From NCBI GenBank assembly GCA_000146045.2, contig BK006941.2, positions 352,001-416,000 of the forward strand: a stretch of 64,000 nucleotides of DNA. The letters are read 5' to 3'. Shown piece by piece: positions 12,335-63,730 of this stretch. Source of the stretch: TPA_inf: Saccharomyces. Taxonomy: Eukaryota. A model generated the notes under the pieces. The model searched no databases. It saw nothing but the letters and a program-made list of their open reading frames with translations, and was not told the origin of the DNA. A program made the translations under genes and the position numbers. Position 1 is the stretch's first letter, and the number at the start of each line of letters is the position of its first letter.

Positions 12335-13996
<1,662 letters not shown>

Positions 13997-14250: not shown

Positions 14251-14380
14251 TATATGATCAGTAGCTATTCTCTACTCAACTGATGTGAACTGGAGTACAA
14301 ATTATGCAAGATATTTTTTTGGCCAAGCTACAAACGTAATACGTAGAAGAATGGATAAAATAGATGTATTAAATATCAGC

Positions 14381-14470
14381 CCCGAAAGATGGTGTAATTT
14401 AAGTTGACAACATCGCAATTTTGCTAGTCACTTTTTGGAATGCCAGAATCGGCAGTATCATCACTAAATA
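14381..14470 (-). ncRNA. SNR39B: Free-standing box C/D snoRNA, paralogous to the intronic snR39 (snR39B).
   Basis: On the minus strand the C box GUGAUGA is at 14458-14464 and the D box CUGA is at 14386-14389. The element CACCAUCUUUCG before the D box is the same as in the intronic copy. The ends are approximate. Confidence 0.7.
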
Positions 14471-25608: not shown

Positions 25609-27582
25609 ATGAGGTCAGGCGATGCAGAGATTAAAGGAATTAAGCCCAAAGTTATTGAGGAATATTCTTTATCTCAGGGAAGTGGTCCTTCCAACGATTC
25701 ATGGAAAAGTTTAATGTCGTCCGCGAAGGACACTCCTTTGCAGTATGATCACATGAATCGCGAAAGTCTAAAAAAATACTTCAATCCGAATGCACAACTC
25801 ATTGAAGATCCTTTGGATAAACCGATTCAGTATAGAGTGTGCGAAAAATGTGGGAAACCCTTAGCTTTGACAGCAATTGTAGACCACTTAGAAAACCATT
25901 GTGCGGGAGCATCTGGAAAAAGTAGCACAGATCCAAGAGATGAGAGTACTAGGGAAACGATACGAAATGGAGTAGAATCAACTGGGAGAAATAATAACGA
26001 CGATGACAATAGCAATGATAATAACAATGATGATGATGATGATGACGATAACGACGACAACGAAGATGATGATGACGCTGATGATGACGACGATAATTCC
26101 AATGGTGCCAATTACAAGAAGAATGACTCTTCTTTTAACCCTTTGAAAAGATCCACATCTATGGAATCTGCGAACACACCAAATATGGACACGAAAAGAT
26201 CGAAAACTGGGACTCCTCAAACCTTCAGCTCTTCCATAAAAAAACAAAAGAAAGTCAAACAAAGAAACCCAACTGAAAAGCATTTAATTGATTTCAACAA
26301 ACAGTGTGGTGTAGAGTTGCCGGAAGGTGGTTACTGTGCACGTTCGCTGACATGTAAGTCCCATTCAATGGGTGCAAAGAGGGCTGTCTCTGGTCGTTCC
26401 AAGCCCTACGACGTCTTGCTAGCAGATTATCATAGAGAACATCAAACAAAAATTGGTGCAGCTGCTGAGAAACGTGCTAAGCAACAAGAATTACAAAAAT
26501 TACAAAAGCAGATACAAAAAGAGCAGAAAAAACATACTCAGCAACAGAAACAAGGTCAAAGGTCTAAGCAAAGAAATGTGAATGGTGGGAAATCAGCCAA
26601 AAATGGTGGTAAGAGTACTGTACACAATGGTAACAATATCAATGAGATAGGACACGTTAACCTAACTCCTGAAGAGGAAACAACACAGGTTCTAAATGGG
26701 GTATCCCGATCTTTCCCACTGCCACTAGAGTCAACGGTACTATCGTCAGTTAGATACAGGACTAAATATTTTAGAATGAGGGAAATGTTTGCTTCCTCCT
26801 TTTCTGTGAAACCAGGATATACATCTCCAGGTTACGGTGCGATCCATTCTCGTGTAGGATGCTTGGATTTGGATAGAACAACAGATTACAAATTTCGTGT
26901 TAGGACTCCACAGCCAATTAATCACCTCACAAACCAAAACCTCAATCCGAAACAAATACAAAGACTACAACAACAGAGAGCTCTACAGGCTCAGCTTCTT
27001 TCTCAACAACAGCAACAGCAGCAACAGCAGCAGCAACATCACTCACCCCAAGCGCAGGCCCAGGCCAGTACCCAACAACCTACTCAAGGTATGGTGCCCA
27101 ATCATTTCCCCGGCGGGGCAACGAATTCATCATTTAATGCCAATGTGTCGAGCAAGCAAATTCAGCAGCAGCAGCAGCAGCAGCAGCACAAGTCTCAAGA
27201 CACAGGTCTCACGCCGCTGGAGATACAATCACAACAACAAAAACTACGACAACAACAACTACAACAACAGAAGTTTGAAGCTGCTGCTTCATATTTAGCC
27301 AACGCTACCAAATTAATGCAAGAATCAAATCAAGATAGCCATTTATCTGGCACCCACAACAATAATAGTAGTAAAAACGGTAACAATAACCTCATGACGA
27401 TGAAAGCCTCCATAAGCTCTCCCAATACTAGCGTAAATAGTATCCAATCTCCCCCTAGTGTCAACAGCGTCAATGGCTCCGGGCAAGGTGTATCTACCGG
27501 TATTAATGTCTCTGGCAATAACGGGAGAATTGAAGTAGGTATTGGAAATTCTGTGAACCCCTACAATGGCAGAATAAATTAA
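25609..27582 (+). CDS. SGF73: SAGA/SLIK deubiquitination-module subunit, ataxin-7 orthologue, 657 aa. It has a SCA7 Zn-finger, a poly-Asp/Asn acidic tract and two poly-Gln tracts.
   Basis: 657-aa ORF. It has an N-terminal C2H2-like CEKCGKPL...HLENHC and a SCA7-type [22 protein letters not shown]. (GAT/GAC)n at about 26020-26100 encodes poly-D. (CAG/CAA)n at about 27004-27038 and 27164-27188 encode [11 protein letters not shown]. Confidence 0.9.
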
Positions 27583-31653: not shown

Positions 31654-32766
31654 ATGCTCTTAGGTTACTGTGGCAGCGGATACTATGGAATGCAATACAA
31701 CCCACCACACAAGACGATTGAAGGTGAGATTCTCACCAAGCTCTTCGACGTAGGAGCCATTTCCGAAGAAAATTCATTGGCACCGAAGAAAAATTCCTTT
31801 ATGGCAGCGGCAAGAACAGACAAGGGTGTACACGCTATGTTGAATCTACTGTCGCTAAAGATCACATTGCGAGAGGACACAGTAGCGAAGTTAAACGCCG
31901 CACTACCGCCCGAAATACGCGTGTGGGGTATCCAGCCTGTCAATAAAAAGTTTAATGCTAGATCCGCGTGCGATTCTCGATGGTACCAATACCTTATCCC
32001 AGAATTTATACTCATTGGTCCACCCCGGAGTTCTCTTTTGCATCGAAACGTGGGGGGATGCTACCGCGAAGACGGCTCGCAAGAGGTGTGGGATACGTTC
32101 CTGGAACAGACGCGTGGGAGATTTAGCGGGGATGAGCTGTGCCGTTTGCAGGACACTGCACAGAAACTAAGCGAGAGCGATCCTTTGGTACAAGACTACG
32201 TGGGGCTATTGAGCGGTACCCTTAGCGGCTACTGCTTGTCGCCCTCGAAGCTGGACGCGTTTGAGGCAGCCATGCAGGAGTACGTGGGAACGCATAATTT
32301 TCACAACTTTACCACAGGAAAGCTTTGGGGGGATCCTAGTGCTCAGCGCCATATCAAAAAGGTTGTAGTGTCGCAGGCCTCACCGGGATGGATATGTGTG
32401 CGGATCCACGGGCAGTCGTTTATGTTGCATCAGATTCGACGAATGGTAGCGCTTGCCGTACTTGCAGCCCGTTGCCAATTGCCGCCTAATATTGTACGTA
32501 ACTATTTTAACGCCGGGCCTAGGAAATACATTCCGAGGGCGCCCGCACAAGGCCTATTATTAGAGGGACCTGTGTTTGACGGGTATAACACTAAGTTGCG
32601 CAATTTGCTGTATTGCGAAATCCGCCCGGACGATATCACTCTTGAGCGCATGTGCCGTTTCCGAGAACGCCAGATCTGTACTGCGATCGCACACGAGGAG
32701 ACACAGCGTCACGTGTTTTGCCATTTTGTACGACAAATGAACCGCCTGGCCACGCCTCTAATCTAG
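31654..32766 (+). CDS. PUS2: tRNA pseudouridine synthase (TruA/Pus1 family), 370 aa.
   Basis: 370-aa ORF. It has the TruA-family catalytic aspartate context (AARTDKGVHA). Its GC content is noticeably higher than that of its neighbours. Confidence 0.9.
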   Translation: MLLGYCGSGYYGMQYNPPHKTIEGEILTKLFDVGAISEENSLAPKKNSFMAAARTDKGVHAMLNLLSLKITLREDTVAKLNAALPPEIRVWGIQPVNKKFNARSACDSRWYQYLIPEFILIGPPRSSLLHRNVGGCYREDGSQEVWDTFLEQTRGRFSGDELCRLQDTAQKLSESDPLVQDYVGLLSGTLSGYCLSPSKLDAFEAAMQEYVGTHNFHNFTTGKLWGDPSAQRHIKKVVVSQASPGWICVRIHGQSFMLHQIRRMVALAVLAARCQLPPNIVRNYFNAGPRKYIPRAPAQGLLLEGPVFDGYNTKLRNLLYCEIRPDDITLERMCRFRERQICTAIAHEETQRHVFCHFVRQMNRLATPLI

Positions 32767-32804
32767 CCGCCCAATGTCGCGGGTTGACCCGCGACATTGG
32801 GCGG
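32767..32804. repeat. Perfect 17-bp inverted repeat CCGCCCAATGTCGCGGG / TTGA loop / CCCGCGACATTGGGCGG. It starts 1 nt after the PUS2 stop and lies about 390 bp upstream of the PYC1 ATG.
   Basis: Read directly from the sequence. The arms carry two inverted CCAAT boxes and a central CGG-N6-CCG. Confidence 0.9.
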
Positions 32805-33195
32805 GCAATACTCTCATCTTATTGGCTATTCAACTTAGACAAGCGCCAGTTGCGCGCACAAATTTGGTCATGACCGCTCCACCGGCATGCGTGTCGTCAT
32901 CCCGCATCATTCGGGACATTTTGGCCTTTTCCGCAGTGCGTAGTTGACGTGGGGAGAAAGCTAGTGGGCTGTCGCATATGGTTGGTTTTAGGTGGCGAAA
33001 GTTTCGCCGCGATAGCAATCATGTCCTCGACCTTAATCTCAATGGAATGGGTCATGCTCGGTAAGTGAGTCTCGCTGTATATAAGTATATATGTAATCGC
33101 CTAGTTCGATAGATACAAGGAGGTCTTGAGTATGTAGATAAACGAAAAGAAGATAACAAAAGGAAAATCTCAGCCTCTCCCCTTCCTCTTAGACA

Positions 33196-58068: not shown

Positions 58069-59286
58069 TCACTTGAACAGCTTGGCGACAGAAATGGCCG
58101 TTTCTTGGTTCTTGTTCATAACCTTACCCACAGCGAGTTCGAAGTCTTCTTGAGTAACGTGTATTCTTCTTTCTCTTAAAGCATACATACCAGCTTCTGT
58201 ACAGACACCTTTGACATCGGCACCAGAACAACCGTTCATCTTTTCAGCAACCTTTCTCAAGTTGATACCACGAGTTAGATTCATTTTTCTGGAATGGATT
58301 CTTAAAATTTCAGCTCTAGCTGCGACACTTGGAGGTGGAAATTCAATCTTCCTATCTATTCTACCGGGTCTCAAAAGTGCTGGATCTAGAATATCTAGTC
58401 TATTCGTGGCCATTATGATCTTGATATTTTTAGAAGTTTCAAACCCGTCCAATTGGTTTAGTAGTTCTAACATTGTTCTTTGAACTTCTGAATCACCACC
58501 ACCAGAACCTTCTACACGAGTAGAGCCAATGGAATCGATTTCATCCATAAAGATAATTGAGGGAGCATGTTCTCTAGCCATCACAAACAGCTCACGGACC
58601 ATACGGGAACCTTCGCCGATATACTTTTGTACCAGTTCCGCACCACTGACCCTGATGAATTTACAATCAGTGTGATGTGCGACAGCTCTTGCCAATAAGG
58701 TTTTCCCTGTACCAGGGGGGCCATATAAGATGACACCCTTTGGTTGCGCAATACCCAAACTTTCAAAAAGTTCAGGATGTTTTACGGGCAATTCAATAAC
58801 TTCTTTAATCTCCTTTATTTGCTTTGTCAAACCACCAACCATATCGTATGTGGAATCAGGAACTTTTTCCACCATCATCAACGAAACTAGTGGGTCAGCC
58901 TTATTCTCAAGAACTTTATGCAACATATAAGAGTCACTCCTTAGACAAACTCTTTGAGATGCCTTTAAGTCCTTCACGTTTATATCTTTTGCAACATCCA
59001 CGATGTATTTTCCCTCAGGTTGCACTTTAACGAGAACTTTTTTGTCAGACACGATCTTTATAACTTCACCCACATAAGATCCAGGTTCCTGTAATAGACG
59101 CAGTTCGTCCTTGATAAAACGTACTTTGTCATTCAATGCATTCCTTTGAGCTTCCAGTCTGCGAACATTTTCTGTTTTGGAGCGGATCTTTAATTCTGTT
59201 TCTTGGATCTTCTGTTCAAAATATGGTTTGATACCACTTTCGTGGGTTTCTAATACTATATTGGAGGATGTTACAGCAGCTGTCAT
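58069..59286 (-). CDS. RPT6: 26S proteasome regulatory AAA-ATPase subunit, 405 aa.
   Basis: 405-aa ORF with Walker A (GPPGTGKT), Walker B (DEID) and an AAA second region of homology. This is an exact match to Rpt6 (Sug1) as I remember it. Confidence 0.97.
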
Positions 59287-59361
59287 TGTCGTGATAGTAT
59301 CCCACTATACTGTTGTTCCGTTTACATAAAACCTAACCTAACTGTTACTGATATTACAACT

Positions 59362-59370
59362 TTTGCCACC
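59362..59370 (-). promoter_or_regulatory. PACE (proteasome-associated control element, Rpn4 site). It reads GGTGGCAAA on the RPT6 strand and lies about 80 bp upstream of the RPT6 ATG, in the RPT6/ALG13 divergent promoter.
   Basis: An exact 9-mer is seen (plus strand tttgccacc). Confidence 0.65.
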
Positions 59371-59551
59371 TCGCTCGCATTTTGACAGTTTTAAAATACG
59401 AAAATTTCCGAACAAGAATAAGGGTAGAGAAGTATGCAAAATATGATTTCATATTAAAAAACCCAACCGAAGAAAAAGGGAAATAGAAAAACAAGTTTTC
59501 AGTCGCAAAAAGAGGTTAAACAAACGAGTCAGAAGCCAGCTCTTTCAAACA

Positions 59552-60160
59552 ATGGGTATTATTGAAGAAAAGGCTCTTTTTGTTACGTGTGGGGCAACGG
59601 TGCCATTTCCAAAGCTCGTCTCATGTGTGCTAAGCGACGAATTCTGCCAAGAATTGATTCAATATGGATTCGTACGTCTAATCATTCAGTTTGGGAGAAA
59701 CTACAGTTCTGAATTTGAGCATTTAGTGCAAGAACGCGGGGGCCAAAGAGAAAGCCAAAAAATTCCAATTGACCAGTTTGGCTGTGGCGACACCGCAAGA
59801 CAGTATGTCCTGATGAACGGGAAATTAAAGGTGATCGGGTTTGACTTTTCGACCAAGATGCAAAGTATTATACGTGATTATTCAGATTTGGTCATATCAC
59901 ACGCTGGAACGGGCTCTATACTAGATTCTCTACGGTTGAATAAACCGTTGATAGTTTGCGTAAACGATTCTTTGATGGATAACCACCAGCAGCAGATAGC
60001 AGACAAGTTTGTAGAGTTGGGCTACGTATGGTCTTGTGCACCCACTGAAACAGGTTTGATAGCTGGTTTACGTGCATCTCAAACAGAGAAACTCAAACCA
60101 TTCCCAGTTTCTCATAACCCGTCATTTGAGCGATTGCTAGTTGAAACTATATACAGCTAG
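59552..60160 (+). CDS. ALG13: UDP-GlcNAc transferase catalytic subunit (GT28 C-terminal half), 202 aa.
   Basis: 202-aa ORF MGIIEEKALFVTCGATVPFPKLVSCVLSDEF... with the motif SHAGTGSILD. Confidence 0.9.
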   Translation: MGIIEEKALFVTCGATVPFPKLVSCVLSDEFCQELIQYGFVRLIIQFGRNYSSEFEHLVQERGGQRESQKIPIDQFGCGDTARQYVLMNGKLKVIGFDFSTKMQSIIRDYSDLVISHAGTGSILDSLRLNKPLIVCVNDSLMDNHQQQIADKFVELGYVWSCAPTETGLIAGLRASQTEKLKPFPVSHNPSFERLLVETIYS

Positions 60161-60293
60161 TTAGTAAGATTTTAAAAGACGAAAAGAACGGAAAGTAGGA
60201 CAACTACCAAAAAAAAAGATGGAAGGTTTCTTTGGTTAGTTAGCAGTATCCGCGTAATGCCTTAGACGTTTTTGATCAGAAAAAAATAAAACT

Positions 60294-60367
60294 TGATTTC
60301 GCCCAGGATCGAACTGGGGACGTTCTGCGTGTTAAGCAGATGCCATAACCGACTAGACCACGAAACC
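60294..60367 (-). tRNA. tRNA-Val (anticodon AAC), 74 nt.
   Basis: The reverse complement reads GGTTTCGTGGTCTAGTCGGTTATGGCATCTGCTTAACACGCAGAACGTCCCCAGTTCGATCCTGGGCGAAATCA. A T-rich terminator follows on the minus strand. Confidence 0.95.
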
Positions 60368-60456
60368 AGTTTTTTGATGTTTCGTTTAGGGACAAGAGTC
60401 CTATGAGAGTCCACTAAAATTCTAAAAATAATTGTATCAACAACCGTCATGCAGCT

Positions 60457-60875
60457 GTTGTATCAAGAATCGACCACCATCTATAGACTATTGTTCATAG
60501 CTGTATTACAATATCATATAAGATGTAAGGATAGAACGTGAAGATCGAGAAACAGTCAGCAGATTTAATGGAAGCTGAAATGCACGGATTGATAATGTAA
60601 TAGAATAAGTGACAACATAAGAAATGAAAGAAAAAAAATAACATTAATATAATTTAGAAATGTTAGTTTCCTTCTATGAACTCTCGTATCCCTGGGGAGG
60701 ACTTTCAATATATTCAGTATACCTACCGTTCAAATGATACTCTAAAATATCATCTATTAAGTGGTATTCAGGTTTTTCCCACGCAAGATTGAGTGCGTCA
60801 GGCAAAGCCACGATCGCAGATTACTCTCCTAACAATATTAAGATCGTCAAGAACATCCGGTTTTACTCAAGCGCT
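60457..60875. mobile_element. Solo LTR (tau/Ty4-like or divergent copia-type LTR), about 419 bp, TGTTGTATC...AATACAACA. It lies 89 bp upstream of tRNA-Val.
   Basis: TG...CA terminal inverted repeats are present. Internal segments resemble delta (AATGGAAGCTGAAATGCACGGATTGATAATGTAATAG...). The family assignment is uncertain. Confidence 0.65.
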
Positions 60876-62101
60876 TAATACAACACGTCGGCTTTCGCTC
60901 AACTGCAGTATATTGTGTCTGTAACCTCTCCCGTCAAGTTTGCGCCACGGGCCCAATAACCAACTTCTGCGCCATTGTTACGGAAAAGTGGCCATCTTTG
61001 CTATGCTCGTAAGGCTAGCGCTCTCTAAGTACGCCAGCCCAAAAACTCCGTATCGCTCTTCATCGGAATTGCTATATCTACAGCCGACGGGCACTCTATG
61101 TATACTCATATCACAGCCACTGTTGCACTACATTATTCGCAGGGACTCCGAGATCGCTGAGCATGTTGCTAAGCAACTTACCAAGGTTGGAATGCATTAT
61201 ATAGTCCGATATAGACCCCGCTCGGACTATATTATATAAATTCAAATAGCACTTTCAACGAGTGTCTTAATCCGTCCTAGTTCCTGCTCTCGCTCCACGT
61301 TGTCATCCCACCCATTCGCACGGGTCTTCTGTGCGAATGAGCCACAACGGGGCCGAGTTCAGCGCGTGTCCGCCTACAACGTCCGCCAACTAGTGGCAAT
61401 TGCTAGGCTACGCCGACCACGCTGACACGCACCGTTCTACTCGCTCTATGCTGCGGTGTGACGTGTGAACGCGCGATCGTTCGCAATCGTATCGTTTGCC
61501 AAGAAAAAAAGCCAATCGGAGAATCTGAAAATCGCTATTCGGCTTGCAGGTCGCACGCACTCAGAGTACGAAATGCCAAGTACCGGAATTTCCTTGGCCT
61601 TTTTTAAGTTTCTTCTCTTCTATTCTTTTTCCCCTTTCTTTCTTCCTTTGCTATCTGTCTGGTTTAAATAAACATAGTATTTTTTTGTGTCTAAGCCTCT
61701 TCCTCTTCTCTCGTACTTGCTCTACTACCACTTTACTTAATCGCCTTTCTTTGTTTTCTTTCTTCGTTATTTGTTCTTGGACTTTTCCGCTCCAATCCCA
61801 ACGATTGGCTTCAAAACACGTTCTACTGTCTAGCAATTTCTGCAGGTGCCATTTTTCTTAGGCTTATACCCTTTCCTTTTCCCCTTACATTTGATTTCTT
61901 CTTCAAAGTTCCTTATAGTATTATTGTCTAAGCTCTATTGAGTCAAAAGTAACAATCTAGACGAAGAAAAAAAAAAAATAGAAAATAGACATCCCCGAAT
62001 ACGCATCATCTCACGCACGTACAAGATTTTAACGTTAAAGCCAAAGTACGCTAGTATAGTATCATCAGCATCACCCTCACTATCGGTAGCATTGACCAAA
62101 C

Positions 62102-63730
62102 ATGTCGTTACTGAGACTGTGGAACAAAGAATCAAGGGCACCATCAAAAATAAAGAGTCATGGTATTGTTGGCAGTTACGGCAACAGCATGCTGGCCCAT
62201 AACAACGTGAAGCAATTTCGTATAGACATAGACGAACCGCATAGAGTATGGAAACCGAATGAAAGCATAACCGGAGAAGCGGTCATTGACATAAAGAGAG
62301 ACATAACTAACGTAGCGATCAAATTATCGCTAGTATGTGAGGTTCGCGTGAAAACGGGGAACAGTCCAACCTCCAAGAATAAGAGAATTGAGAAAACCTT
62401 AGAGAAGTCGACGTTTCTTTATGGACAGGACTACGTAAAGACAGCTTTTTCGGCTAAGGAAAAGAAACCGCATGTTGACAAAACCACCATTCTCAATGGT
62501 TTAAGCAAGGGGGAACACAGGTTTCCCTTTAGGATACGAATACCACGAGGCAGAGGAATGTTGAGCTCTATAAAGTTCGAAAGGGGCTCGATAACATACT
62601 TCCTCTCTTGCACTTTAGAATCCCTCAACAACATCAACGGATTAAAAAAACCGGAAGCAAGATGCGAACGTGAGTTTGCAGTCATAGTTCCGCTGGACGT
62701 CTCGAGGCTGCCCAAGCCGAAAACTAAGACAGTGGTTTTACAATCAGCATCTATGGTCCAAAACAAAAAGAACAAATCTACAGAGGACGAATCCTCATCG
62801 TATACACAATTAACTCAAAAGTCTACTACTTCTAATTCTTCTAGCAGTTCAGTAAACTCCAAGACGTCCCCCTTACCAAATAAAACGGTGACTATATCCG
62901 TAGACATACCGCAGGCTGGATTCATGATTGGTGAAATTATCCCTATAGACGTTAAGATTGACCACTATAAGCCTTTCTATGCCCCTGCGGGTCTCACCAC
63001 CACTTTGGTGAGGATATGTAGGGTGGGCGGTGCAGGCAAAGATGATCCTATGGAGACTTTCAGAAAAGATATATGTCAGAGTATCTCTCCTATATATATT
63101 AACCCTGAAACGTTGCAGTTTCAATCTAGAGTTTATCTGAAAGTGCCCCTTGATGCATTTTCGACCCTTACTACTGTGGGAAAATTTTTCTCCTTCCAAT
63201 ACTATATCGAGGTTATGGTTAACTTATCAAAAAAAAACGTGGTTTACACAGAATCTAATAGAATAATAGGAACTCCTATTGGAGAACAAAATGGCTTGGG
63301 CGTAGAGAATAATATCAACCGTATCCAAAGGAAAATGCTACGTATGGTCAATCCAGAAACGTTGGAGAACGATTCTGAGGGTTATGAATCCAGTATATTT
63401 TTCAAAGATATGGTAAATGTGGAAAAGCTAAAGAGACTGAGGAATGTAACTGGTATGTCCATAGAAACCGTCATAGGAACGACGAGATCCGAACAGCAGC
63501 AATCTGATGCAAGCATCCCATCCCAATCCTCAATCACGGCTCCTCAAAATTCTCCATCGAATTTAAGAGATTGGTTGGCCCCATTAAATGCATATGATAG
63601 TGACGATGTTCCAGTTCCAAAGTATTCGCCAAATGATAAAGTCAGTGTACCGTCGGAAGACAAACAAGAACTTGAACAAAAAAGACTACAACAGTTAGAA
63701 AGCGATCCTCCCCCTTGTGATGACTATTAA
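62102..63730 (+). CDS. RIM8: Arrestin-like adaptor of the Rim101 pH pathway, 542 aa.
   Basis: 542-aa ORF with an arrestin-like fold and the C-terminal PPxY-like motif PPPCDDY. Size and position match YGL045W. Confidence 0.88.

Follow-up and report, generated by a model that had tools for sequence, protein, structure and literature searches.

The GC-richest stretch in a 64-kb window of chromosome VII (the window being the whole 64,000 nucleotides analysed) is best read as the native, non-coding distal promoter or upstream control region of RIM8 combined with a catalogued meiotic DSB hotspot, and its unusual composition and palindromes would largely be by-products of recombination. We put the probability of this reading at about 70%. 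That the site is a RIM8 promoter and a hotspot is already known biology. Taken as a whole, the evidence essentially shows a long, conserved 5′ UTR/promoter that belongs to RIM8 and lacks foreign similarity, the plain outcome that a first-pass annotation of the window had set against its own, more exotic proposals of a structured RNA, a degraded gene or old inserted DNA.

Composition, position and origin of the island

The island had been flagged as an anomalous, GC-rich non-coding stretch at 60880–61560, and a windowed GC scan bears this out: its 681 bp have 50.8% GC as compared to 38.6% in the whole 64-kb window, corresponding to z = +3.1 among 681-bp windows (top 1.2%). Both the 200-bp GC maximum of the 64 kb (60.5% at 61281–61490) and the 300-bp maximum (56.7% at 61271) fall within it, and at the 500-bp scale the sole equal in the window is the PUS2 / PUS2–PYC1 region (32000–33000). 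The CpG observed/expected ratio is 1.30, against a window mean of 0.83 (top 1.7%), and the string CGCCGACCACGCTGACACGCACCG, quoted earlier as an example of the CGCG/GCGC-type sequence, was found at 61410–61433. According to the strand skews, the plus strand of the island is C-rich, and it is pyrimidine-rich from 61000 to 62000.

The surroundings are likewise as first described, with a tRNA/LTR site on one side and RIM8 on the other. A tRNA-Val(AAC) gene on the minus strand (60293–60368; ARAGORN) marks the upstream limit of the intergenic region, a degenerate LTR lies beside it on the upstream flank of the island, and RIM8 (YGL045W), the gene served by the control region and coding for the arrestin of the Rim101 pH pathway, follows on the plus strand at 62102–63730. 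According to ARAGORN, tRNA-Val(AAC) keeps this position in each of the seven Saccharomyces species as well as in N. dairenensis and N. bracarensis, and the orthologous loci match the tRNA-Val(AAC) locus at 94–95% identity (blastn).

Alignment across the sensu stricto species, proposed as a check in the first-pass annotation, revealed that the island is conserved in position. In each of the seven Saccharomyces species, the 200-bp GC peak of the locus reaches 57–69%, with the highest value in S. kudriavzevii (69%), and lies at −765 to −867 from the RIM8 ATG; two invariant TGCCAAG sites follow about 200 bp downstream of it. The island is ancestral. A GC-rich patch upstream of RIM8 in N. bracarensis, considered as a homologous island in Nakaseomyces, consists of tandem repeats and was rejected as not homologous.

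Within the island, conservation is uneven. The 5′ lobe (60880–61250; 46.9% GC) falls beyond the mapped hotspot core and evolves faster than any other part of the island, with 27% mismatch between S. cerevisiae and S. paradoxus and many indels, as compared to 18% mismatch in the GC peak, 3% in the block 61491–61610 and 19% downstream. Beyond the closest species, most of the island aligns poorly and carries many indels. The strongly conserved promoter block (61455–61620; 3% mismatch between S. cerevisiae and S. paradoxus) holds TGACGTG, CGCGCG, GCCAATCGG and the Rim101 sites, and the seven-species alignment shows a GC-rich footprint, ATGAGCCAC(A/G)ACGGGGCC, within the GC peak (61337–61354), which is a candidate factor-binding site.

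A composition that differs from that of the surrounding genome, adjoining a tRNA/LTR insertion hotspot, would suit foreign or anciently inserted DNA, be it a horizontal transfer, a NUMT or a mobile-element fragment. However, the island occupies the same position in seven species and contains the deeply conserved native RIM8 operator. A blastn comparison with plasmids and E. coli genomes, run in distant mode, gave no sign of foreign similarity, Pfam and protein searches of its frames gave no match, and no second copy exists in the 64-kb window. The suggestion of old inserted DNA is therefore not supported, and we consider a foreign origin extremely improbable and close to refuted.

The 99-codon ORF reported within the island (60940–61239, plus strand) is open over its full length only if TTG is accepted as a start, as in the bacterial code; its ATG-initiated part comprises 78 codons. 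In S. paradoxus, the frame is broken by indels that are not multiples of three, and a six-frame comparison yielded no ORF shared among the seven Saccharomyces species. Ten island frames from three species had no match in a Pfam search, a 104-aa island frame had no homologue among 5.8 billion proteins, and a 61-aa frame from the GC peak, searched against 1.84 billion representatives, gave no more than repeat proteins and a self call judged spurious. Lacking in-frame conservation, a Pfam match or a protein homologue, the island was rejected as a protein-coding gene, and the 99-codon ORF is a chance open frame.

The idea of a degraded gene fared better in one respect, as the island occupies the syntenic position from which an NSR1 copy was lost. 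On this track, K. africana and N. dairenensis retain the order ALG13-NSR1-RIM8-MTR3, and in the pre-duplication species Z. rouxii and L. thermotolerans NSR1 is likewise the direct upstream neighbour of RIM8. In these species, the PacC sites are preceded, at a distance of a few hundred bp, by the GC-rich, RGG-coding 3′ end of NSR1 (53–60% GC), a placement that resembles that of the Saccharomyces GC peak, so that the island could be the decayed remnant of an NSR1 copy that was lost in the Saccharomyces lineage. Yet no NSR1 remnant was detected in eight species by tblastn with four orthologues, by a protein HMM on six-frame translations or by nhmmer, and no frame showed similarity to NSR1, Pfam families or other proteins. 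Moreover, RGG codons would enrich the plus strand of the island in G, but it is rich in C, and a neutral remnant would be expected to have decayed to about 35% GC in the time since the genus arose, whereas 57–69% persists in seven of seven species. We thus regard a relic of NSR1 as very improbable.

The probable RIM8 control region and the meiotic hotspot

The 3′ end of the island is an invariant block and would constitute an operator with three Rim101 (PacC-type) sites. Two TGCCAAG sites on the plus strand, at 61497–61503 (−605) and 61574–61580 (−528), are invariant in seven species, and sequence and alignment place a third GCCAAG core on the minus strand at 61593–61598, which reads CCTTGGCC on the plus strand, is followed by a T6 run and forms an inverted pair with the −528 site. 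Lying within 101 bp, the three GCCAAG sites are the tightest trio among the matches listed for the 64-kb window. Outside the genus, Z. rouxii, L. thermotolerans, N. dairenensis and K. africana likewise carry a TTTGCCAAGA site ahead of RIM8. The region hence shows what characterizes a Rim101/PacC-regulated promoter, that is, GCCARG/TGCCAAG sites that are conserved in orthologous promoters. Rim101 binds TGCCAAG (PMC5349140), and PMC4472021 and PMC4832277, citing Lamb and Mitchell 2003, describe its repression of RIM8 as a negative feedback. We propose that processed Rim101 binds the three-site operator and represses RIM8 through it, which would close the negative feedback on the pH pathway.

Downstream of the operator, a TATA-like element, TTTAAATAAA, on the plus strand at 61663–61672 (−439), which reads TATATAG in S. 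kudriavzevii, probably marks the core promoter. An ATG-free, pyrimidine-rich stretch then extends up to the RIM8 start (61576–62101, plus strand), most of which is a putative long 5′ leader. Counting back from the start codon, no ATG occurs for 526 nt in S. cerevisiae (P = 0.0005 in shuffles), for 416 nt in S. kudriavzevii, 374 nt in S. uvarum, 380 nt in S. eubayanus and 320 nt in S. arboricola, giving an ATG depletion over 320–526 nt in five of seven species. The lack of ATG triplets over roughly 320–530 nt suggests a long RIM8 5′ leader, and this apparently long leader would explain why the Rim101 sites lie unusually far from the ATG. Transcription would start about 300–420 nt upstream of the ATG, downstream of the TATA-like element, and produce a long, pyrimidine-rich, ATG-free leader. 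An intron in the RIM8 5′ UTR was also considered and rejected, as the sequence from the island to the ATG contains no TACTAAC branch site and no literature support was found.

The same DNA is listed as a Spo11-oligo meiotic DSB hotspot (chrVII 413230–413600, corresponding to 61230–61600 of the window), covering the GC peak and the Rim101 block; it appears as chr7 413230–413600 among the 3,600 hotspots of Pan et al. 2011, as reproduced in Table_1 of PMC8276760. The coordinate offset of 352000 was validated, as it minimises the overlap of hotspots with ORFs (16% versus 67% ORF coverage). The hotspot lies between ALG13/tRNA-Val and RIM8, has 0% of its length in a long ORF and thus belongs to promoter-containing intergenic DNA. 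Its limits almost equal those of a cluster with at least 52% GC (61211–61600). Across the window, four of the five clusters with at least 55% GC overlap hotspots, hotspot width correlates with GC content (rho 0.45, P 0.03), and the other GC-rich spot, PUS2/PYC1, is a hotspot too. A link between GC-rich intergenic regions and hotspots has been described in Saccharomyces (Vakirlis et al., bioRxiv 10.1101/119768). The average hotspot in the window has 41.7% GC, far below the RIM8 island hotspot (60% over 200 bp). Most window hotspots are not GC-rich, for example that at 59335–59463 with 32% GC, so hotspot status alone is insufficient to account for the composition. The table represents the S. cerevisiae map only and gives positions without intensities; we assume that the hotspot is conserved in other Saccharomyces species.

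Spo11 hotspots mark nucleosome-depleted DNA, which is why a reading of the GC peak as an intrinsically nucleosome-favouring 'closed promoter' was dropped. As a catalogued hotspot, the island would instead be an open promoter region. PMC8276760 credits Pan et al. 2011 with the finding that hotspots are depleted of nucleosomes.

Inverted repeats, hairpins and their likely source

Several short perfect inverted repeats had been reported in the island, two of them with positions. The first, ATATAGTCCGA/TCGGACTATAT (61199–61209 and 61222–61232; 11-nt arms, 12-nt spacer), was found exactly at the reported position of 61199–61232. The second, CATTCGCAC/GTGCGAATG (9-nt arms, 9-nt spacer), is also perfect, but it lies slightly 3′ of the approximate position given before (61306–61330), at 61313–61321 and 61331–61339. 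Both exceed chance: four seeds with arms of at least 9 nt were observed as compared to a mean of 0.07 in 500 dinucleotide shuffles of the island, none of which contained an 11-nt arm.

Five species, S. cerevisiae, S. paradoxus, S. mikatae, S. kudriavzevii and S. arboricola, share the core of the first repeat, GTCCG...CGGAC. In S. arboricola, two pairs differ on both sides (AT..AT to GC..GC), and the stem is perfect over 11 bp. The second repeat is specific to S. cerevisiae in its present form, and S. paradoxus has a shifted CACGGG/CCCGTG version. Much longer palindromes occur in single lineages, with 33-nt arms in S. eubayanus (up to 71 bp), where S. uvarum has a palindrome of only 10 bp, and a 34-bp palindrome in S. 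uvarum, which aligns with GCCGGG..CCCGGC in S. eubayanus. When about 130 kb were covered, that is, the 64-kb window plus the orthologous loci, five of eight perfect inverted repeats with arms of at least 10 nt fell within the island, which represents about 3% of the sequence examined. The PUS2–PYC1 hotspot in the same window has a palindrome with 18-nt arms.

Hairpin-forming repeats could also point to an independent non-coding RNA, either a structured one or an lncRNA, upstream or divergent, that controls RIM8 through its transcription. Minimum free energy z-scores reach −2 to −3.5 for 150-nt windows between 61100 and 61450, both perfect repeats are above chance, the pyrimidine bias of the plus strand from 61000 to 62000 would suit a purine-rich minus-strand transcript, and a hotspot implies open, promoter-like DNA. 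However, the z-scores are modest, differ little between the strands and stem from the two palindromes, Rfam returned nothing for the island at gathering score or at E ≤ 10, and an RNAalifold consensus of five species was weak (−17.3 kcal/mol over 380 columns) and had no covariation support (covariation term +0.12). Primary-sequence turnover is high, hairpin 2 lacks conservation even in S. paradoxus, and only the short hairpin 1, formed by the first inverted repeat, is retained across species. RIM8 was not found in LUTI or ncRNA-deletion supplements, and a literature search for transcripts of the RIM8 region found none. The earlier proposal of a structured RNA was abandoned; the island probably has no transcript of its own, and we judge an RNA gene of either kind improbable.

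A stronger competitor is that GC-richness and palindromes are selected promoter features rather than by-products of recombination, and that the hotspot is a mere consequence of open chromatin. The island would then hold a dense cluster of GC-rich sites together with a palindromic CCG-N13/14-CGG element bound by a dimeric factor, for example of the zinc-cluster type. In keeping with this, the GC-rich footprints ATGAGCCACGACGGGG, GTCCGCC, TGACGTG and CGCGCG are conserved in five to seven species, and the GC peak has diverged less (18%) than the 5′ lobe (27%). The retention of the first inverted repeat in five species and its two both-sides changes in S. arboricola could likewise reflect selection on a hairpin or dimer site instead of mutational bias. 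Polarised substitutions, which are few and come from a biased parsimony, gave no W>S excess, with 20 W>S versus 23 S>W in S. cerevisiae and 19 versus 18 in S. paradoxus across the whole island; in the GC peak, where counts are small and the parsimony is equally biased, S>W predominated in S. cerevisiae, S. uvarum and S. eubayanus, three of the four lineages. The strength of GC-biased gene conversion in yeast is disputed. Against selection on the island as a whole, most of it is rich in indels and aligns poorly past the closest species, and the long palindromes differ in sequence and position between the sister species S. uvarum and S. eubayanus, which makes them unlike a conserved binding site. 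Selection as the main source of composition and palindromes is possible, but in our view unlikely.

The preferred reading, a RIM8 control region shaped by recombination, would account for these patterns as follows. The GC peak and the operator (61230–61600) are cut by Spo11 in meiosis, and the subsequent repair synthesis would be prone to template switching, while repair may also be GC-biased. These effects would overlie a set of GC-rich factor-binding motifs under selection. GC and CpG richness, fast turnover and recurrent palindromes would then largely be by-products of a long-lived recombination-initiation site, and the recurrent gain of lineage-specific perfect palindromes, as judged from the alignments, fits repair-associated template switching. 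Repair synthesis in yeast is described in PMC4052342, which cites Hicks et al. 2010, as strongly mutagenic and as leaving a signature of template switching, and quasi-palindrome extension via a template switch has been described as well (PMC3820800).

A bolder version, which we put forward tentatively and consider rather doubtful, takes the island as a long-term record of hotspot mutagenesis, in which template-switch palindromes, rather than biased mismatch repair, help keep GC content high. Here, a stable recombination-initiation site as old as the genus would be continuously rewritten by template-switch repair synthesis, which would give birth to palindromes and restore arm complementarity in older ones.

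Significance and comparison with known systems

For annotation, these findings remove a false lead, as the GC-richest stretch in 64 kb of chromosome VII corresponds to the RIM8 promoter/operator and a hotspot. Within the 64-kb window, they also provide a worked example of how short GC-rich intergenic peaks mark Spo11 hotspots. What goes past textbook knowledge is confined to one point, namely that long perfect palindromes have arisen repeatedly at the island, each in a particular lineage. If this held true genome-wide, palindrome birth would be a sequence-only signature of template switching at yeast DSB hotspots and would offer a route to study the mutational cost of stable hotspots.

Among known systems, yeast structured ncRNA genes (snoRNAs, RPR1, NME1, TLC1) share with the island that they are GC-rich relative to the genome, non-coding and capable of forming hairpins; in contrast to them, the island has neither a family match nor covariation, and its sequence is poorly conserved. 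Yeast gene relics are reportedly decayed pseudogenes in intergenic regions. Like them, the island is non-coding and takes the syntenic place of a gene that disappeared after the whole-genome duplication, but what defines a relic is the similarity to its parent protein that remains, and the NSR1 searches detected none in the island.

The operator closely resembles Rim101/PacC-repressed promoters (S. cerevisiae NRG1, SMP1 and RIM8; A. nidulans palF), with the same clustered TGCCAAG/GCCARG sites upstream of a pH-pathway arrestin gene. It differs from them in that its sites are unusually distant from the ATG (−500 to −605) and that the adjoining 600 bp of GC-rich DNA belong to no described Rim101 element. 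As at yeast quasi-palindrome and template-switch sites (PMC3820800), short inverted repeats in the island were extended to long perfect ones in single lineages; those systems are reporter assays run over laboratory time, whereas the events in the island are deduced from species comparison, and their link to DSB repair is a proposal. Finally, the island shares with promoter-associated Spo11 hotspots of raised GC content that it is catalogued, lies in promoter-containing intergenic DNA and is GC-rich like the widest hotspots of the window. It stands apart from the average window hotspot by its GC peak, which rises further in S. kudriavzevii, and by its recurrent long perfect palindromes.

Position, composition and meiotic breaks

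In this window of S. cerevisiae chromosome VII, the GC-rich island at 60880-61560 is the upstream control region of RIM8 (62102-63730, plus strand), carries a putative Rim101 operator and falls on a Spo11 hotspot already catalogued. It follows RPT6 (58069-59286, minus strand), ALG13 (59552-60160, plus strand), a tRNA-Val(AAC) gene (60293-60368, minus strand) and, between that gene and the island, a degenerate LTR (about 60450-60770), confirming that it adjoins a tRNA/LTR site. In the same tRNA-Val-proximal place S. cerevisiae has a delta-like LTR, whereas S. arboricola carries, beside its tRNA-Val gene, a piece similar to a sigma (Ty3) LTR end (L003:3560-3640); the tRNA-proximal part of the spacer serves in each species as a separate target for insertion.

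Windowed GC over the 64 kb bore out the first-pass annotation's claim of a compositional outlier. The 681-bp island has 50.8% GC versus 38.6% for the window (z = 3.1), contains the top 200-bp and 300-bp GC values, reaching 60.5% at 61281-61490, and has a CpG observed/expected ratio of 1.30 (window mean 0.83). Two perfect inverted repeats are likewise present (61199-61209/61222-61232 and 61313-61321/61331-61339), far above dinucleotide shuffles. The anomaly is genuine, yet accounted for by established biology.

We took window positions to be chrVII positions minus 352,000, from the coordinates of PYC1 and RIM8. When offsets up to 3 kb to each side were compared, 352,000 gave the least overlap between published hotspots and long ORFs (16%, versus 67% ORF coverage), providing an independent test of the offset. 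Among the 3,600 Spo11-oligo hotspots mapped by Pan et al. 2011 and listed again in the PMC8276760 supplement, chr7 413230-413600 corresponds to 61230-61600, limits almost identical to those of the cluster with at least 52% GC (61211-61600). Four of the window's five 200-bp clusters with at least 55% GC overlap hotspots; the remaining one (27021-27220) lies inside a 657-codon ORF (25609-27582). Within the window, hotspot DNA averages 41.7% GC versus 34.4% for other non-ORF DNA, and hotspot width rises with GC (rho 0.45, P 0.03). In the same line, GC-rich intergenic DNA is associated with hotspots in Saccharomyces (bioRxiv 10.1101/119768). AT-rich hotspots are nonetheless numerous in the window, and polarised substitutions in the island show no excess of A/T-to-G/C changes, on small counts and with parsimony biased, and so do not establish GC-biased conversion as a current process. 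Selected GC-rich binding sites, or the inverted duplication of GC-rich seeds, may therefore have shaped the composition as much as biased repair.

Outside the island, only PUS2 and the PUS2-PYC1 spacer reach the same GC-richness, and two hotspots cover them (31760-32321 and 32572-33070). Within 31654-33195, the PUS2 coding sequence has 50.9% GC (CpG observed/expected 1.11) and the spacer 48.7%, both far above the window mean. The first hotspot (562 bp) lies wholly inside the PUS2 ORF, an unusual location for yeast hotspots.

A candidate RIM8 operator in a conserved place

We compared the ALG13-RIM8 loci of S. paradoxus, S. mikatae, S. kudriavzevii, S. arboricola, S. uvarum and S. eubayanus. 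In every species GC over 200 bp reaches its maximum for the locus of roughly 11 kb (57-69%) at 765-867 bp upstream of the RIM8 ATG, and two invariant TGCCAAG motifs follow about 200 bp downstream of this peak. BLAST beyond S. paradoxus aligned little of 60880-61450, and mismatch between S. cerevisiae and S. paradoxus is 27% in the 5' lobe (60880-61250), 18% in the GC peak, 3% at 61491-61610 and 19% downstream of that. Thus position and composition are conserved and most of the sequence is not, with a few GC-rich footprints still kept inside the peak (ATGAGCCACGACGGGG, GTCCGCC, TGACGTG, CGCGCG). A simple two-state view of decay implies that no neutral GC-rich remnant could have stayed at 65-69% GC in three lineages, so something probably maintains the GC-richness.

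Within the invariant block (61455-61620) are two TGCCAAG sites, at 61497 and 61574, and a GCCAAG in inverted orientation at 61593-61598; nowhere else among the sites listed for the 64-kb window do three lie this close. TGCCAAG is the Rim101 binding motif (PMC5349140), and Rim101 represses RIM8 in a negative feedback loop, according to the passages of PMC4472021 and PMC4832277 that cite Lamb and Mitchell 2003. The 3' edge of the island is, judged by its motifs, a RIM8 operator with candidate Rim101 sites. The alternative that the first-pass annotation had set against its own proposals, a RIM8 promoter without foreign similarity, largely fits. A TTTGCCAAGA element upstream of RIM8 also occurs in four other genera, at -148 from the ATG in Z. 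rouxii, -183 in L. thermotolerans, -441 in N. dairenensis and -325 in K. africana.

The candidate Rim101 sites of Saccharomyces lie at -500 to -605. In S. cerevisiae 526 nt upstream of the RIM8 start are ATG-free (P = 0.0005, composition-preserving shuffles), as are 416 nt in S. kudriavzevii, 380 in S. eubayanus, 374 in S. uvarum and 320 in S. arboricola; S. paradoxus and S. mikatae have one short uORF each. Site positions and ATG-free stretches are part of the evidence that RIM8 probably has a long leader. A TATA-like element lies at 61663-61672, and the predicted transcription start is at about -300 to -420.

Alternative coding, RNA and foreign origins

The 99-codon ORF noted earlier does mark an open frame, but its length is artificial, arising from a TTG start under the bacterial code (78 codons from ATG). 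No reading frame in the island is conserved among seven Saccharomyces species, indels between S. cerevisiae and S. paradoxus have lengths not divisible by three, Pfam has no match to any of ten frames from three species, and a 104-aa island frame has no relatives among 5.8 billion proteins, all of which mark the island as non-coding. A 61-aa frame across the GC peak matches only a spurious same-locus gene call and three tandem-repeat proteins. A public gene call, P0142 (147 aa), was translated from the S. cerevisiae GC peak plus the Rim101 block and is a spurious database protein; its frame is unlike the window sequence, suggesting an assembly error or strain indel.

Nor is the island recognisable as the structured non-coding RNA also proposed: Rfam gives it no match, not even at E<=10, the RNAalifold consensus of five species is weak (covariation term +0.12), and only windows with the two palindromes reach folding z-scores of -2 to -3.5, alike on both strands. 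Elsewhere in the window, minus-strand C/D-box snoRNA matches at 13158-13255 and 14374-14468 (snoZ196 family, 57 bits; snR39, 124 bits) are presumably the known snR39/snR39B pair near RPL7A.

Inserted foreign DNA is contradicted by the GC peak's presence in every Saccharomyces species examined, which makes it conserved in place rather than strain-specific, by the absence of plasmid or E. coli similarity and by the lack of a second copy within the 64-kb window. As for a degraded gene, the slot itself belonged to the lost NSR1: gene order is ALG13-NSR1-RIM8-MTR3 in K. africana (L012:6001-11773) and N. dairenensis (L007:2780-7997), NSR1 is directly upstream of RIM8 in Z. rouxii and L. thermotolerans, and on the same track Saccharomyces has ALG13-tRNA-RIM8, with NSR1 and MTR3 lost. 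This is reciprocal post-duplication gene loss; S. cerevisiae retains NSR1 and MTR3 on the sister track (YGR159C/YGR158C). No NSR1 remnant was found in the island by tblastn, protein HMM or nhmmer, and its strand bias does not suit RGG codons, arguing against a relic. Upstream of RIM8, N. bracarensis has a repeat-rich 5 kb without a homologous island, so the present form is a Saccharomyces feature. That interval (L013:727-6000, tRNA-Val to RIM8, about 5.3 kb) is nearly devoid of called genes, carries the tandem repeats (CCAGTGAGGTCT)n and (ATCAGC)n, closes with a hydrophobic-tail-like frame, and could be a repetitive gene of the cell-wall or adhesin type that annotation has missed.

Recurrent palindromes

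A search of the window plus six orthologous loci, about 130 kb in all, for perfect inverted repeats with arms of at least 10 nt, loops of at most 40 nt and no A/T runs yielded eight. Five fall in the island, which makes up about 3% of that DNA, and a sixth is the GC-rich palindrome at 32767-32804 (CCGCCCAATGTCGCGGGT tg ACCCGCGACATTGGGCGG, 18-nt arms), which begins one base past the PUS2 stop codon, in the PUS2-PYC1 spacer within the hotspot chr7 384572-385070. S. eubayanus has a 71-bp palindrome with 33-nt arms and a 5-nt loop (L011:5960-6030), against just CAGATATCTG in S. uvarum; a 34-bp loop-less perfect palindrome in S. uvarum (L004:4316-4349) is matched by GCCGGG..CCCGGC in S. eubayanus. 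At each lineage-specific palindrome, the sister species thus holds no more than a short palindromic seed. Inverted repeat 1 of S. cerevisiae has a longer history: five species share it, and in S. arboricola it has two outer pairs altered on both sides and two inner pairs gained.

Template switching would create or restore perfect arm complementarity at these palindromes in a single event. Repair synthesis during homologous recombination in yeast carries a template-switching signature, according to the passage of PMC4052342 citing Hicks et al. 2010, and yeast quasi-palindrome extension has been described (PMC3820800). We infer that palindrome birth at the RIM8 locus is linked to hotspot activity. 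As a kind of element the island is not new, and its only aspect that merits genome-wide follow-up is the repeated appearance of long perfect palindromes.
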